Positions 1 to 4,909 are shown, counted from the first letter of the whole stretch. The stretch is 4,909 nt of DNA, filler included, from an uncultured virus (IMG/VR IMGVR_UViG_2061766007_000578) (2 parts of one record of this genome joined end to end with filler, not necessarily neighbours in it); one strand, 5' to 3'. Notes: a model not told the origin generated them from the letters alone. Translations and numbers: made by a program.

Positions 1-1
1 A

Positions 2-157
2 CAAGAGCCAAAGCCGGGGCATTGGATAAGAATGAAGGCATACGAAAAATGGGGATGTTCAGAGTGTAATACAGTTTTTAGATTTACCTTTAAGGAACAT
101 GACTATTGCCCTAATTGCGGTGCAAGAATGGTTGAGCTACAGGAAAGCGAGGAATAA
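2..157 (+). CDS. 5'-truncated phage zinc-ribbon hypothetical protein (not in ORF track)
   Basis: Manual translation of frame 2: QEPKPGHWIRMKAYEKWGCSECNTVFRFTFKEHDYCPNCGARMVELQESEE*. It has the G-x-W-I...CxxC...CPxCGA pattern, and its TAA abuts the next ATG at 158. Similar to the middle module of ORF 1087-1455. Confidence 0.85.
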   Translation, partial: QEPKPGHWIRMKAYEKWGCSECNTVFRFTFKEHDYCPNCGARMVELQESEE

Positions 158-856
158 ATGTTAGATTTTGGATTTTATAACATGGACTGCATGGAAGGTA
201 TGAAAGAATTTCCAGACAAATATTTTGATATTGCCATAGTTGACCCTGTTTATGGGGATGTTACAAAAGGCGGATATATGACAAATAATAAAGGTCAGCA
301 TATTGGAACAGGCAAGGCGAATCAAAAAGGGTATTATTCTGGCTTATGGAGTCAGAATAAAACAGAAAAAGAATATTTTTCGGAATTGTTAAGGGTAAGC
401 AAAAATCAGATTGTATGGGGGGGAAACTATTTTGCAGAAAATCTCCCATCGTCCCAAGGGTGGATTGTATGGGATAAGCAACATCCAGAGGGGATAACAT
501 TTGCTGATGCAGAATTAGCGTGGACATCTTTTGATAAAGCTATAAGAACATTTAGATTTATGTGGAATGGGATGTTGCAAGGCGATATGAAAAACAAGGA
601 AAATCGCATACATCCAACACAAAAACCAATAAGGTTATATGAGTGGATATTAAATAATTATTGTAACGAAAAAGACATAGTTCTTGATACTCACGTTGGA
701 AGTGCATCAAGCCTTATTGCTTGTAAAAACACAGGACATAAGTATGTTGGGTTTGAAATTGACGAAACCTATTTTAGATTAGCAAATCAAAGGTTGGAAC
801 AAGAAACTGCGCAAATGAATTTTTTTGATTTGGGATATAACCTATATCAAGAATGA
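158..856 (+). CDS. Phage DNA methyltransferase, N4-cytosine/N6-adenine type, beta-class motif order
   Basis: N-terminal 'DCMEGMKEFPDKYFDIAIVDPVY' (motif IV, DPPY-like), 'WIVWDK', 'HPTQKP', and C-terminal SAM-binding motif I 'VLDTHVGSASS...YVGFEID'. GAGG RBS upstream. No cognate endonuclease in the window. Confidence 0.93.
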   Translation: MLDFGFYNMDCMEGMKEFPDKYFDIAIVDPVYGDVTKGGYMTNNKGQHIGTGKANQKGYYSGLWSQNKTEKEYFSELLRVSKNQIVWGGNYFAENLPSSQGWIVWDKQHPEGITFADAELAWTSFDKAIRTFRFMWNGMLQGDMKNKENRIHPTQKPIRLYEWILNNYCNEKDIVLDTHVGSASSLIACKNTGHKYVGFEIDETYFRLANQRLEQETAQMNFFDLGYNLYQE

Positions 857-880
857 GCCACAGGAAAGGAGCGATAAGGA

Positions 881-1090
881 ATGACAGACAGAAAACCAGA
901 TATTCCCGACATCAGCAAAATAAAGTGTGTGGATTGCAGATATAATGTTGACAATGTGAACGAGGAAAGACCGAAAATGCGGTTTTGCGCAATAAGCGGT
1001 CATGCACTCGACATTATGGATAAAGGCTTGCCGATATGGGGATGCCCGATTAAGGATGCGTACAAGGCAGAAAGTGAGGAAAAAAAATGA
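881..1090 (+). CDS. Small Cys-rich phage hypothetical protein (69 aa)
   Basis: CVDC...C...GCP pattern, AGGAG/AAGGA upstream, and its stop overlaps the next start (ATGA 1087-1090). Confidence 0.8.
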   Translation: MTDRKPDIPDISKIKCVDCRYNVDNVNEERPKMRFCAISGHALDIMDKGLPIWGCPIKDAYKAESEEKK

Positions 1091-1455
1091 AACTGATAAT
1101 TGATATATCCGAAGAACGATACAAAGACGTTCAGAGGATAGCAAGCGTTCAAGCAGACAGAAACCACTTTCAAACGGCAGAGCAGATAATAGCAAATGGC
1201 ACACCTATTCCCGACAATGAGCAAAAGACAGGGCGTTGGATAAGAGTTAAAGACAAAACAGAACATTGGGTATGGAAATGTGATAAGTGTGGTTGGCAAC
1301 AGAGATTTGATACAAATCATTGCCCAGATTGCGGCGCAAAGATGGTTGAGCCACATGAAAGTGAAAAAGTGAATTGTAAATCTACGAAATGCGATAACTG
1401 TATAAATCATAATTACTGTGATTATGAGCCACAGGAAAGTGAGAATAAGGAATGA
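1087..1455 (+). CDS. Phage hypothetical protein with zinc-ribbon, apparently a three-module fusion (122 aa)
   Basis: MKLIIDISEE...IIANGTPIP module, then KTGRWI...CDKC...CPDCGAKM zinc ribbon, then a C-terminal CKSTKCDNCINHNYC module. ATGA overlaps at both ends. Confidence 0.85.
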   Translation: MKLIIDISEERYKDVQRIASVQADRNHFQTAEQIIANGTPIPDNEQKTGRWIRVKDKTEHWVWKCDKCGWQQRFDTNHCPDCGAKMVEPHESEKVNCKSTKCDNCINHNYCDYEPQESENKE

Positions 1456-1619
1456 AGGAAACAAAATCTCATGCACCTGTTTTCCGAGGGAGCAAGCCAA
1501 ACAGTACAACGGTATGTGCCTACTGTCCTAAATGTGACACGGCAATTAAGGAATACAGACAGAAAAAGTGTTATAAATGCGGGTGGGAGATATATTGGAT
1601 GCCATTCGGCAGAAAGTGA
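1452..1619 (+). CDS. Small zinc-ribbon protein (55 aa; not in ORF track)
   Basis: Manual translation: MKETKSHAPVFRGSKPNSTTVCAYCPKCDTAIKEYRQKKCYKCGWEIYWMPFGRK*. The ATG overlaps the previous stop (ATGA), it contains CPKC...CYKCG, and the junction motif lies on both sides. Confidence 0.8.
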   Translation: MKETKSHAPVFRGSKPNSTTVCAYCPKCDTAIKEYRQKKCYKCGWEIYWMPFGRK

Positions 1620-1629
1620 GGAACAAGGA

Positions 1630-1821
1630 ATGACGAGAGAGAAAGCCTTGATATTAGCACTAAAGATTGTTGATGTATGCAAGACATACGGTGGAGAGGA
1701 TAGGTGCAAACAATGTCCTTTTAATGTCAATGGATGTTTTGTTACGGACGGGAACAATATTCCGACAGATTGGAGAGCAAGCGAACTGATTAAATCCATT
1801 GAGATGCAAGGCAGAAAGTGA
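1630..1821 (+). CDS. Small Cys-rich phage hypothetical protein (63 aa); start revised from 1471 to 1630
   Basis: MTREKALILALKIVDVCKTYGGEDRCKQCPFNVNGCFVTDGNNIPTDWRASELIKSIEMQGRK*. The ATG at 1630 follows GAGGAACAAGGA, the same junction/RBS motif used by neighbouring genes. Confidence 0.8.
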   Translation: MTREKALILALKIVDVCKTYGGEDRCKQCPFNVNGCFVTDGNNIPTDWRASELIKSIEMQGRK

Positions 1822-1830
1822 GGACAAGGA

Positions 1831-2050
1831 ATGAAAATAATTGATGCAGATAAGTTTTTAGCATATTTGATCTTTTCCAAGCACATAGACGGATTGACTT
1901 GTGGTGAGGTTAAAGAAGCGATTGAAATGTGTAAGGTTGATGTACTTGACGNNNNNNNNNNNNNNNNNNNNNNNNNNNNNNNNNNNNNNTTACCGCAGAG
2001 GGGTTAATGATGTGTTGAGGATTATCGACAAGTACAAGGCAGAATTTTAG
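1831..2050 (+). CDS. Phage hypothetical protein spanning an N gap (not in ORF track)
   Basis: MKIIDADKFLAYLIFSKHIDGLTCGEVKEAIEMCKVDVLD (1831-1950), gap 1952-1989, then YRRGVNDVLRIIDKYKAEF* (1991-2050). The frame differs across the gap, which is consistent with an estimated gap length. GAGGA RBS upstream. Confidence 0.65.
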
Positions 2051-2073
2051 CCACAGGAAAGGAGCGAGAAGGA

Positions 2074-2189
2074 ATGAAAAACGAAAGACCCTGTGATAAA
2101 TGTATCTTCCATGATGGAACATGCCACCACTGGAATTGTGAACCGATAACCAGGAACGAGGCCGAGGCAGCGGTCAAGACCTTGAGGGA
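2074..2189 (+). CDS. 3'-truncated Cys/His-rich phage hypothetical protein (not in ORF track)
   Basis: MKNERPCDKCIFHDGTCHHWNCEPITRNEAEAAVKTLR runs into the N gap at 2190. Preceded by the junction motif with AGGAG/AAGGA. Confidence 0.7.
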
Positions 2190-2199
2190 NNNNNNNNNN

Positions 2200-2706
2200 G
2201 ATCAATTTTTATGTTGATAACAACGTCTACTATATGGATAACGTGGACATCCACGAACAGAACGCAATTGCGCTTCTGGTAGAACCGAGGGCGATCATTC
2301 CGGGGACGTACGACTGGATGGAACAGAACTATCACAAATTCAGGTATGTGTTCACCTTTGATGAAGAGATCCTGAAATTGCCGAACGCGAAGCTGCTCCT
2401 GTACGGACAGATCACGGCAGAGTTCCCGAACGGCCCGAAACATATAGCCGTCTCAATGGTGGCATCGGGCAAGGACTTCTGCGAAGGGCATAGGAATCGC
2501 AATATTATAGCGCGAGAGCTGAAGGGCAAGATTGATACTTTTGGAAGATTTGACGGTGGTGAGTATTGTGACGATAAAGACTTCCTGCAAGGGTACATGT
2601 TTAACGTGGCTATGGAGAACAGTTCTAACGGGCACTACTTCACTGAGAAGATTTGTAACTGCTTTGCATCGAACATAGTTCCGATCTATTGGGGATGCCC
2701 GAACAT
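2200..2706 (+). CDS. Gap-bounded internal fragment of GT10 fucosyltransferase-like gene (second copy or allele of 3151-3657)
   Basis: Open across the whole 507-nt segment and colinear without indels with 3151-3657. About 51 nucleotide and 11 amino-acid differences by hand count. Contains FNVAMENS...YFTEKI...VPIYWG. Confidence 0.85.
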
Positions 2707-2716
2707 NNNNNNNNNN

Positions 2717-3010
2717 AGAGGTGGAAGTCATTCTGGTTGATGACGGAAGCAAAGAAAAGTTCTGGACAGAATACGAATGGTGCAAGGTCTTCCATCAGAA
2801 AAACAAGGGGGTATCTTCTGCCAGGAATGAAGGATTGAAAATGGCCCAGGGGGAATACATCGCATTTATCGACGCGGACGATCTTGTCTCCGTGGACTAT
2901 GTGAGTAAAATCTTCAACAAGATGCCGTTCGATTATCTTGATCTGTCATGGAAGTCTTTACCCGGTGGTCAACAGTTCTCATACAAACTGAACAGCGATG
3001 CAGACCGACT
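2717..3010 (+). CDS. Gap-bounded internal fragment of family 2 glycosyltransferase (GT-A fold)
   Basis: EVEVILVDDGS...NKGVSSARNEGLKMAQGEYIAFIDADD contains the canonical GT2 motifs, including DxD. The N-terminal SIIIP strand is missing here and is found at 3868. Confidence 0.9.
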
Positions 3011-3085
3011 NNNNNNNNNNGTTGGCAAAGACTTGTGAACCCCACCATATGGTATGCGTTGGGGATATTGTGAAGGGAGTGCAGA

Positions 3086-3871
3086 ATGAAAATTAAACTC
3101 CGCTCAATGTATGATTCCTTCCCGGAAAAATACGGCGACAGCGATAATCAAATCAATTTCTATGTAGACAACAATGTCTACTTTCTGGACAACACGGACA
3201 TCCATGAACAGAACGCGATAGCGCTTTTGGTAGAACCCAGGGCGATCATTCCGGGGACATACGACTGGATGGAACAGAATTATCACAAATTCCGGTATGT
3301 GTTTACCTTTGATGAAGAGATCCTGAAATTGCCGAACGCGAAGCTGCTCCTGTACGGACAGATCACGGCAGAGTTCCCGATGAAACCGAAGAATAAAGCC
3401 GTCTCAATGGTGGCATCGGGCAAGGACTTTTGTGAAGGACACAGAAACCGCAATATCATAGCGCGAGAGCTGAAGGGCAAGATTGACACTTTTGGAAGAT
3501 TTGACGGTGGTGAGTATTGCGACGATGCAGCCTTCCTGCAAGGGTACAAGTTCAATGTGGCAATGGAAAACAGCAGGAACGGGCATTACTTCACGGAGAA
3601 GATTTGCAACTGCTTTGCATCGAACATAGTTCCGATCTATTGGGGATGCCCGAACATCGACAAATACTTTGACATGGACGGGATCATCTATTGTCAGAAT
3701 CATGCAGACATCATCAAAGCCGTGGACATGGTGCTCGCAGATCCGGAAGGTGAATACAACAAAAGGCGCGATGCTATTGAACACAATTATCAGACGGTGC
3801 AGAAATATCGCAGGTATGCAGACTGGTTTTTGAGAACATACGGTGAAATGTTGGAGGATATGGTCAAATGA
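3086..3871 (+). CDS. Glycosyltransferase family 10 (alpha-1,3-fucosyltransferase-like), 261 aa
   Basis: YKFNVAMENSRNGHYFTEKICNCFASNIVPIYWG matches the GT10 nucleotide-sugar-binding signature (YKFxxxxENS...YxTEK...VPIYWG). It has an upstream conserved-type Arg region 'HRNR' and 'IDTFGR', and GGAG RBS at about 3076. Confidence 0.88.
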   Translation: MKIKLRSMYDSFPEKYGDSDNQINFYVDNNVYFLDNTDIHEQNAIALLVEPRAIIPGTYDWMEQNYHKFRYVFTFDEEILKLPNAKLLLYGQITAEFPMKPKNKAVSMVASGKDFCEGHRNRNIIARELKGKIDTFGRFDGGEYCDDAAFLQGYKFNVAMENSRNGHYFTEKICNCFASNIVPIYWGCPNIDKYFDMDGIIYCQNHADIIKAVDMVLADPEGEYNKRRDAIEHNYQTVQKYRRYADWFLRTYGEMLEDMVK

Positions 3872-3953: not shown

Positions 3954-4053
3954 NNNNNNNNNNNNNNNNNNNNNNNNNNNNNNNNNNNNNNNNNNNNTTA
4001 ATTAATTAANNNNNNNNNNNNNNNNNNNNNNNNNNNNNNNNNNNNNNNNNNNN
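3954..4053. other. Artificial contig-joining linker (N44-TTAATTAATTAA-N44, exactly 100 nt)
   Basis: A palindromic 12-mer at 3998-4009 with TAA stops in all six frames, centred between two runs of 44 N. Confidence 0.95.
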
Positions 4054-4434: not shown

Positions 4435-4707
4435 GCGCGGCTCCTATGCAAAGAAGCCGACACGANNNNNNNNNNNNNNNNNNNNNNNNNNNNNNNNNNN
4501 NNNNNNNNNNNNNNNCACCCAGTCAGTGTGTGCGATATGTGGCAAGCCTGTTGACAAGTCGATTAAATATCCGGACCCGATGTCACCAACAGTTGACCAT
4601 ATTATTCCACTTGCAAAGAATGGCGATCCCGTGGCACTGGACAACCTTCAGCTCGCTCACAGATATTGCAACAGGATGAAGAGCGACAAAATAATAAATG
4701 CTGCTAA
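4433..4707 (+). CDS. Phage HNH endonuclease (packaging-associated type), gapped and 3'-truncated
   Basis: CAICGKPVD...TVDHIIPLAKNG...LDNLQLAHRYCNRMKSDK gives CxxC plus DHIIP, NL and HxxCN motifs. The start is more likely ATG 4433 than 4304. Gap at 4466-4515. Confidence 0.9.
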
Positions 4708-4717
4708 NNNNNNNNNN

Positions 4718-4909
4718 TACCCAGTCAGTGTGCGCGATATGTGGTAAGCCTGTTGATAAGTCGATTAAATATCCGGACCCGATGTCACCAACAGTTGACC
4801 ATATCATTCCGCTTGCAAAGAATGGCGATCCCGTAGCATTGGACAACCTTCAGCTTGCACACAGATATTGCAACAGGATGAAGAGCGACAAAATAATAAA
4901 TGCTGCTAA
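4718..4909 (+). CDS. Second copy or allele of the HNH endonuclease fragment
   Basis: 192 nt with the same endpoints as 4516-4707 and 10 substitutions. The translation is identical (TQSVCAICG...KIINAA). Confidence 0.88.

Follow-up and report, generated by a model that had tools for sequence, protein, structure and literature searches.

Results

The stretch of DNA analysed here (the window; 4,909 nucleotides, filler included) comes from an uncultured virus (IMG/VR IMGVR_UViG_2061766007_000578), and its 5′ end consists of eight co-directional genes, namely the 3′ end of a zinc-ribbon gene, a methyltransferase gene and six small genes. One nucleotide motif recurs between these genes, and its predicted role in translation and its possible role in gene exchange are the subject of this report. 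A copy stands at all seven junctions (157/158, 856/881, 1090/1087, 1455/1452, 1619/1630, 1821/1831 and 2050/2074, each given as the end of one gene and the start of the next; Table 1). All copies lie on the plus strand and none was found after 2077. The copies carry one of two 5′ extensions within the tail of the upstream gene, type A (GAGCCACAG, translated EPQ) or type B (TACAAGGCAG, translated YKA). Five copies of GCCACAGGAAAG with at most two mismatches (136, 857, 1350, 1428, 2050) were found against 0.39 expected, three of GGCAGAAAGTGAGGA (1066, 1608, 1810) against 0.20 and five of AAGGAATG (876, 1447, 1625, 1826, 2069) against 0.35, numbers that were reached in none of 200 shuffles in each case. 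An independent repeat search of the window returned the same motif families. A previous reading of the DNA from its sequence alone (the sequence-only reading) had placed the motif at all seven junctions between 1 and 2077 and nowhere beyond; the counts above confirm this, and one decayed copy stands in addition at 1348–1372.

The core common to the junctions, G-AAAG-N-GAGG, is a long Shine-Dalgarno (SD) site for the 3′ tail of the 16S rRNA of Lachnospiraceae (CCUCCUUUCU). The 16S 3′ end used for this comparison (..GGATCACCTCCTTTCTA) was taken from one genome of the same family, the sole match among 13 searched; the 16S of the named hosts was not found in G006 and G007 with the Rfam model, and a universal primer-like pattern gave one chance match. 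Eight motif sequences, comprising six window copies and the type A and type B consensus, were folded against this tail. Seven of them pair at −13.0 to −13.9 kcal/mol and the copy at 1428 at −10.3 kcal/mol. The pairing comprises 10 base pairs with a one-base bulge, or nine contiguous base pairs where the copy has GGAAAGGAG (857 and 2050), and either base in CAG[A/G]AAAG preserves it, as A-U or G-U. The core lies about 7–8 nucleotides ahead of the start codon of the next gene, and GAAAGNGAGG is the part predicted to carry the SD and coupling role.

The geometry of stop and start codons was assessed in the relatives of the window in IMG/VR. Among the matches listed, an open reading frame (ORF) of at least 40 codons starts 1–13 nucleotides past the GAG in 114 of 125 type A copies, mostly at 8 nucleotides. 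For the 97 listed copies that also have an upstream ORF, the two frames overlap by ATGA in 51 and by one nucleotide in six, abut in seven and are separated by 1–3 nucleotides in 17, placing 81 of 97 between an ATGA overlap and a 3-nucleotide gap. The window itself has ATGA at 1087 and 1452, abutting codons at 158 and gaps of 9–24 nucleotides at the other four junctions. Translational coupling is described as most efficient at spacings of −4 to +3 nucleotides in the available part of a review (PMC12548453), and the geometry of the relatives' junctions matches this optimum. Stop and start in close proximity, with the SD inside the upstream ORF, is the arrangement of translationally coupled gene pairs.

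The junction RNAs are unstructured, with minimum free energies of −0.4 to −5 kcal/mol and z-scores of −0.72 to +0.75, no better than shuffles, and no Rfam family matched them with an E value of 1 or below. A promoter scan returned four promoter-like sites against 6.5 expected, none of them at a junction; no terminator-like site was found in a terminator scan, and no inverted repeat at the junctions in the repeat search of the window. On inspection by eye TTGAGC .. TAAGGA was rejected as a promoter, and the promoter scan marks nothing at that place. The type A extension adds only two 7-mers complementary to the 16S rRNA, which is at chance level, and GAGCCAC, TACAAGG and the spacer GATAAGGA likewise showed no 16S pairing beyond chance 7-mers. 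Type-A-like 12-mers are exact in 17 of 21 cases (among the 40 most frequent 12-mers of the matches listed). The conservation upstream of what a ribosome-binding site needs, which the sequence-only reading had stressed, is in large part the long SD pairing of the Firmicute type, and what stands of that claim is the type A extension, which rRNA pairing leaves unexplained.

By reading frame, the window copies comprise three in-frame tails (..LQESEE-stop, ..YKAESEEKK-stop and ..YEPQESENKE-stop), two that end in ..GRK-stop and two that are untranslated; in the untranslated junction 7, TAG 2048–2050 stands where type A has GAG. Among the matches listed for the relatives, the ESE frame is used in 108 of 111 type A copies whose upstream ORF has 30 codons or more, and in 107 of 120 3′-anchored copies, 10 of these 120 stopping at the internal TGA. 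The dominant frame gives ..(EPQ/YKA)ESEDKE-stop, and variants differ by whole codons, as in EPQAESE (L127, L255) and EQESEDEE-stop (L041). Synonymous sites of the motif are nearly fixed, while the adjacent upstream zinc-ribbon codons vary freely. Constraint on the nucleotides and constraint on the peptide frame both apply. That the tail must end at ATGA accounts for the bias in frame, and no peptide function is needed to explain it. The sequence-only reading had seen the motif translated in different frames and had concluded that nucleotides rather than peptide are constrained. The GRK-stop and untranslated copies and the fixed synonymous sites agree with this; the copy at 134 (GAGCTACAGG) reads ELQ and not EPQ, frame-neutrality does not hold across the relatives, and the single dominant frame with its whole-codon variants is at odds with a constraint on nucleotides alone.

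Comparison of loci that share a gene shows to which side of the junction the motif belongs. Where the upstream gene is common, the motif type is kept while spacers and downstream genes differ, and where the downstream gene is common, the upstream motif types differ. In 34 upstream-sharing pairs identity is about 70% up to the core and falls to background from +9; in 33 downstream-sharing pairs identity remains at background until the ATG and is high after it. These profiles indicate that the SD belongs to the upstream gene and that the break falls in the approximately 10 nucleotides between core and start. This contradicts the proposal of the sequence-only reading that each cassette arrives with its own ribosome-binding site, since the gene before the junction keeps both the SD and its type A or B extension.

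The motif is widespread. Exact matches to GAGCCACAGGAAAGNGAG in IMG/VR stand at no fewer than 126 loci, with 129 distinct contexts among the matches listed, and a scan with the 3′ half AAAGTGAGGATAAGGAATG likewise returned at least 126 loci. When the 3′ half is held fixed, ..AGGCAG precedes it (type B) in about 62% of 141 contexts among the matches listed and GAGCCACAGG (type A) in at least 17 of the 141, the remainder being different. Because the upstream contexts of the fixed 3′ half vary in this way, the common part is best described as G-AAAG-N-GAGG, a spacer and the start codon, with A and B as two 5′ extensions. The 19-mer of the motif was also found in 31 stretches of bacterial genomes, 13 of which belong by their titles to Lachnospiraceae or to genera placed in that family (Butyrivibrio sp. 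INlla21 and Eubacterium ruminantium ATCC 17233 among them); eight further stretches are from other Clostridia or Bacillota by their titles. The public runs that match the window come from 11 studies and are metagenomes of bovine gut.

In four phage genomes of 42–49 kb (99–100% complete, three with terminal repeats) CAGRAAAGNGAG occurs in 1–4 clustered copies per genome. An extended ribosome-binding site present genome-wide, which would have spoken against the sequence-only reading, is therefore not what is found. In one of the complete genomes (G002) other genes have GAAAGGAG-type sites and GAGCCACAG occurs only in the small-gene array, downstream of recombination and replication genes; in another (G001) the array lies between methyltransferase and terminase. 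The junction is thus confined to small accessory genes between the replication/recombination and the packaging genes of rumen Lachnospiraceae phages and prophages. In Eubacterium ruminantium two small contigs account for 11 of the 14 copies of GAAAGYGAGGA, and one of the two consists of consecutive small genes with the core before each. No description of the motif was found in the literature searched (strings GAGCCACAGGAAAG, AAAGTGAGGATAAGGA and EPQESE).

One E. ruminantium ATCC 17233 contig (NZ_FUXA01000030.1; 4.5 of 4.8 kb examined) has 11 SD-core copies, nine of which stand directly ahead of ORFs of 62–182 codons, and this cultured strain offers a ready laboratory handle. Other phage lineages, relatives by their methyltransferase, have junction consensus sequences of their own, in which the SD likewise lies in the tail and stop and start overlap by ATGA: L128 and L129 share ..GGAGGCAGAGAATGA (tails EGGRE-stop and QEGRQ-stop), and L130 has ..GGAGGCGTGAG...

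Evidence on exchange comes from genes of the array that occur elsewhere. Homologues of the genes at 881–1090 and 1630–1821 were found in eight other IMG/VR contigs, in which homology to the window is that one gene only. In seven of the eight (82–91% identity) it spans 864–1081/1090 or 1612–1822/1824 and ends inside the motifs, as the sequence-only reading had anticipated in describing the motif as a boundary for the exchange of single genes; in the eighth (75% identity) only 1630–1802 matched, and the junction sequences are others. Three of the eight contigs are 96–97% identical over only 224–264 nucleotides and have unrelated 1.1-kb flanks. Contigs from other studies carry 873–1079/1080 with one or two differences, or 1625–1836 with one difference, in both cases between unlike flanks, and one of them fuses a type A junction to position 1625. 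Cassettes that are 96–99% identical thus recur in unrelated contexts, and homology between unrelated genomes ends inside a shared sequence, as in boundary or linker sequences. Of the 350 internal homology ends in 64 loci, 162 are located at 199 core junctions and 48 at 451 other tight junctions, which makes them about 7.6 times commoner per core junction (162/199 versus 48/451). The joints seen in the contigs of four sequencing runs, which were examined as contigs, have sides of only 21–34 nucleotides derived from junctions of other phages (including one from 1443 to 1086). A statistic based on both flanks being shared was tried as a test of shuffling and rejected: it gave 0 among 62 upstream-sharing and 13 downstream-sharing pairs, and does not discriminate because the non-motif control also gives 0, and the count of spans and breaks is no more discriminating.

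An annealing protein together with an exonuclease is encoded in all three complete relatives examined, RecT in G002 and G004 and Sak4 in G001, in line with the check for a recombinase of this class that the sequence-only reading had proposed. Rad52-like recombinases drive the formation of mosaics via short, diverged homology, according to the available part of PMC3945230. On the breakpoints in relatives, another check proposed there, homology does end inside the motif, and no closely related pair differing by a clean cassette insertion or deletion was found among 80 gapped pairs.

Discussion

The motif is a real and widespread feature which, in the literature searched, has not previously been described, and which is kin to Start-Associated Sequence (SAS) elements and to boundary sequences as these appear in the available parts of their sources. 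We favour the reading that it is a translational-coupling junction of standardised form, which serves at the same time as a linker for recombination, and on the sequence comparisons made here we would put the probability of this at roughly 0.6. The upstream gene mostly reads through the core in a single frame as an acidic tail (..ESEDKE-stop), its stop overlapping the next start (ATGA); the ribosome that ends one gene would be passed to the next, such that any gene placed behind the junction may be expressed. Since 20–30 nucleotides recur between many genes and phages, the junction could act as a crossover point for homologous recombination, at which phage annealing proteins of the RecT or Sak4 type, or RecA of the host, would swap single genes; with crossover at shared junctions the genes would behave as cassettes. 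The interpretation offered by the sequence-only reading is overall partly supported. Its comparison with integrons fails in anatomy, as there is no hairpin, inverted repeat, promoter or terminator at the junctions.

One may speculate further that rumen Lachnospiraceae phages maintain the junction under selection as a plug-and-play adaptor of 30 nucleotides (tail, SD and ATGA) that guarantees expression and is a preferred substrate of RecT/Sak4-type proteins, so that the community holds a pool of single-gene cassettes. The type A and B extensions might then be recognised by a phage factor. We regard this stronger proposal as doubtful; if true, the adaptor would be a recombinase-general counterpart of the integron.

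A number of observations weigh against the favoured reading. Non-motif tight junctions are equally mosaic, with 22 upstream-sharing, 31 downstream-sharing and 0 both-sharing pairs against 24, 15 and 0 for motif junctions in the same comparison, and homology segments with 80% identity or more cross none of the junctions, whether of the motif or not. Moreover, the loci were picked via the motif, which biases the per-junction rates. Because the control is equally mosaic and nothing spans the junctions, the excess at motif junctions rests on the rates of a motif-selected sample. Illegitimate recombination with subsequent selection would likewise leave breaks at gene borders, temperate phages in general commonly encode annealing proteins, and among the 80 gapped pairs no two closely related genomes were found to differ by the clean gain or loss of a cassette, the five pairs that touch the motif all being paralogous. 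The 9-nucleotide type A extension is conserved at synonymous sites, and SD pairing leaves such conservation unexplained. Finally, the gene order of the window itself is provisional, as it crosses repeats of about 30 nucleotides and k=31 contigs of the likely source sample end at motifs (spans 108–883, 1051–1439 and 1410–1950).

The assembly behaviour is informative in its own right. Summed contig depth in rumen metagenomes is 134–512 in the bins holding the copies at 134, 855, 1061, 1426 and 1807 and the internal copy (66–195, 846–910, 1041–1105, 1301–1365, 1431–1495 and 1756–1885), only 20 in the bin that holds the 1608 copy, and about 8 in gene bodies. As k=31 contigs end at its copies, the motif is a repeat between genomes in assembly graphs. 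Where phages that occur together have repeats of about 30 nucleotides in common, k=31 graphs break, and assemblies made with a short k could go wrong at these points.

One alternative holds that the motif is a ribosome-binding and coupling site and nothing else, its likeness between junctions being due to selection for the best SD that an acceptable tail allows and to common descent of the tails, and the borders to illegitimate recombination plus selection for intact genes. SD pairing does account for the core, and the equally mosaic control junctions, the separate consensus sequences of other lineages (GGAGGCAGAGAATGA in L128/L129, GGAGGCGTGAG in L130) and the variation by whole codons and synonymous changes (L041, EQESEDEE-stop) are all as this explanation would have it. 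It sits poorly with cassettes 96–99% identical that have recently recurred in unrelated flanks with both ends in the shared motif, with identity over 18–30 nucleotides, third codon positions included, on unrelated upstream gene families, and with the roughly 7.6-fold excess of homology ends per core junction; we consider it possible, though unlikely. That conservation exceeds SD pairing (the spacer GATAAGGA and the type A and B extensions), that the motif is restricted to one module and that it contains three GGA elements could instead point to a trans-acting factor controlling the small early genes as one set. Candidates would presumably be a translational repressor resembling RegA of T4, an RNase that cuts SD sites like RegB of T4, or a GGA-binding host protein such as CsrA. 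Such a factor is improbable given two different 5′ extensions, many junctions that have neither and only the SD core in common; unrelated junction pairs have an identity of only 0.29–0.65 outside −1..+8, the extensions track the upstream gene family, and neither RNA structure nor an Rfam match was found.

Selection might act on the tail peptide (EPQ)ESEDKE itself, for example as a common C-terminal tag, the identity of the DNA being secondary. This would explain why a single frame dominates the listed matches (108/111 and 107/120) and why insertions and deletions comprise whole codons (EPQAESE in L127 and L255, EQESE in L041). Yet two window copies are untranslated and two end at the internal TGA, as do 10 of the 120 listed elsewhere, and the synonymous sites are nearly fixed where the zinc-ribbon codons just upstream are free. 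With the ATGA overlap as a further explanation of the frame bias, a peptide tag seems very improbable. We give hardly any credence to the remaining proposals, a dedicated site-specific cassette system of the integron kind or chimeric metagenome assembly at shared repeats. The former would fit unidirectional cassettes with common boundaries, and the latter k=31 contigs that break at the motif and depths of 134–512 in junction bins against about 8 in gene bodies; but the junctions have no hairpin or inverted repeat, the window has no integrase, and many independent assemblies, as well as the cultured Eubacterium ruminantium ATCC 17233, have the same array.

The closest analogue of the coupling junction is the element named SAS in Cluster K mycobacteriophages. 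In the available part of its description (PMC3203893), SAS is a short, asymmetric repeat located a few bases upstream of start codons in one orientation, with an SD core plus conserved positions that rRNA pairing leaves unexplained. It is found in the non-structural part of the genome only, ahead of varied gene families, is rare in the host, and sometimes contains the upstream stop (PMC3203893). The rumen motif shares the orientation upstream of starts, the SD with extra conservation, and the restriction to non-structural genes with rarity in the host; it too precedes genes of varied families and at some junctions contains the upstream stop. In the same source SAS differs in its consensus (GGGATAGGAGCCC), in the phylum of its host and in being 13 base pairs long and mostly intergenic, where the motif is 20–30 nucleotides and mostly translated as the upstream tail; the rumen junctions have no ESAS-like inverted repeat, and that part of the description states no tie of SAS to mosaic breakpoints, unlike the motif (PMC3203893). 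The motif thus works like SAS without being a member of it by sequence.

In T4-type phages, PeSL (promoter-early stem-loop) elements are short, conserved regulatory sequences between small non-essential genes of hyperplastic regions and serve as homologous exchange points that shuffle single genes, in the available parts of PMC2839356 and PMC4122927, and in both respects resemble the motif. From the same parts, a PeSL consists of a sigma-70 promoter and a terminator stem-loop and borders a transcription unit, whereas the motif is a translation-initiation junction inside one operon, and mini-circles belong to PeSL recombination where replacements are seen at the motif (PMC2839356, PMC4122927). 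Neither a border promoter nor a border stem-loop terminator was found at the motif junctions.

Integron cassettes resemble the array in being small, one-directional, promoterless genes with a common boundary element. They differ in the attC hairpin, attI and IntI; exchange in the array is more like general homologous recombination, the junctions have no inverted repeats or structure of the attC kind, and no IntI was found in the 4.9-kb window by family and profile search, relatives not being searched for it. In synthetic biology the 'bicistronic design' employs an embedded SD for reliable initiation on whichever gene follows. Natural NTGA coupling, in the available part of PMC12548453, is similar to the junction in having the SD in the last codons of the upstream ORF and a spacing of −4 nucleotides. 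Ordinary coupling sites, unlike the motif, are not conserved in sequence across unrelated gene pairs or genomes.

The idea of linkers goes back to papers on lambdoid phages. In modular theory, as presented in the available part of PMC3029335, homologous recombination at short gene-border sequences yields mosaics, as may be the case here; by the same account, no such sequence can be identified at the majority of mosaic borders. The rumen motif differs from the linkers of that account in being explicit, near-identical over 20–30 nucleotides and equipped with an evident function of its own. Since linkers are unseen at most borders, explicit examples in support of mosaicism are rare (PMC3029335, available part), and one with its own role in translation, common to at least hundreds of uncultured rumen phage contigs, is of value in this regard. 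It is also present in prophages of cultured Eubacterium and Butyrivibrio, alongside near-identical single genes in different contexts, and thereby offers a testable system for the share of phage gene flow that is homology-driven. The motif is further of practical use in the phages that bear it, as a rule by which start codons and the limits of genes can be called.

Features of the window

Table 1. Motif copies and genes of the 5′ part of the window (positions in nucleotides; energies are for the duplex with the 16S tail).
Feature	Position	Strand	Remarks
Junction 1, type A variant GAGCTACAGGAAAGCGAGGAATAAATG	134–160	+	ELQESEE-stop; TAA 155–157 abuts ATG 158; −13.2 kcal/mol
Junction 2, type A, contiguous SD GAGCCACAGGAAAGGAGCGATAAGGAATG	855–883	+	untranslated; TGA 854–856 overlaps first two bases; ATG 881; −13.3 kcal/mol
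Junction 3, type B TACAAGGCAGAAAGTGAGGAAAAAAAATGA	1061–1090	+	YKAESEEKK-stop; ATG 1087 overlaps stop (ATGA); −13.0 kcal/mol
Decayed internal copy GAGCCACATGAAAGTGAAAAAGTGA	1348–1372	+	inside ORF 1087–1455; EPHESEKV
Junction 4, type A GAGCCACAGGAAAGTGAGAATAAGGAATGA	1426–1455	+	EPQESENKE-stop; ATG 1452 overlaps stop; −10.3 kcal/mol
Junction 5, type B GGCAGAAAGTGAGGAACAAGGAATG	1608–1632	+	GRK-stop, TGA 1617–1619 inside SD; ATG 1630; −13.0 kcal/mol
Junction 6, type B CAAGGCAGAAAGTGAGGACAAGGAATG	1807–1833	+	upstream gene ends ..GRK-stop at TGA 1819–1821; ATG 1831
Junction 7, type B remnant TACAAGGCAGAA, then TAG 2048–2050, then CCACAGGAAAGGAGCGAGAAGGAATG	2033–2076	+	ATG 2074; −13.9 kcal/mol
Zinc-ribbon gene, 3′ part, tail ..CPNCGARMVELQESEE then stop	2–157	+	paralogue of middle of ORF 1087–1455; repeat families D5, D7
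N6/N4 DNA methyltransferase, 232 amino acids	158–856	+	PF01555 1.1e-16; phrog_67 9e-48
Single-gene cassette, 69 amino acids, no family	881–1090	+	present in other phages, other contexts
Zinc-ribbon protein with Cys-rich tail, 122 amino acids	1087–1455	+	
Small zinc-ribbon-like gene, 55 amino acids	1452–1619	+	
Single-gene cassette, 63 amino acids, no family	1630–1821	+	present in other phages, other contexts
One or two small genes, 38 N inside (1952–1989)	1831–2050	+	last one's end ..IDKYKAEF-stop
Start of last motif-preceded gene	2074–2189	+	N run cuts gene at 2190

The decayed copy looks like a former junction that now links the zinc-ribbon part of its gene to the Cys-rich tail. Behind such an internal EPHE/EPQE linker (1348–1455 in the window) stands a Cys-rich mini-domain of about 20 amino acids, CKS[TA]KC[DE]NCINHNYCD[YF], followed by EPQESE. 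The same mini-domain is found in L005 on an unrelated protein, and in L069 its position is occupied by a different Cys-rich segment, a distribution that looks like domain-level shuffling at the same motif.

A blastn comparison of window positions 1–1950 with published phages gave two weak matches to methyltransferases and nothing else. Beyond the small-gene array the window has genes for a GT10-like and a GT2 glycosyltransferase, a regulator like region 4 of sigma-70 and HNH endonucleases. G+C content rises from 36–41% in the array to 43–49% in the glycosyltransferase region (2001–3800), which has other SD sites and no motif and could be a moron-like insert or sequence of other source.

Part of the GT10-like gene is present in two copies (2200–2706 and 3147–3656) that differ at about one in ten positions, and a segment of the HNH endonuclease in two copies (4516–4707 and 4718–4909) with identical peptides; the copies could be genuine paralogues, or strain variants that scaffolding has placed next to each other. 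Runs of N and linker are found at 1952–1989, 2190–2199, 2707–2716, 3011–3020, 3954–3997, 3998–4009, 4010–4053, 4466–4515 and 4708–4717. Four of the N runs are exactly 10 N long, and TTAATTAATTAA, a linker with stops in six frames, is flanked by N runs, so that the record looks like a scaffold or concatenated pieces and not one contiguous assembly.

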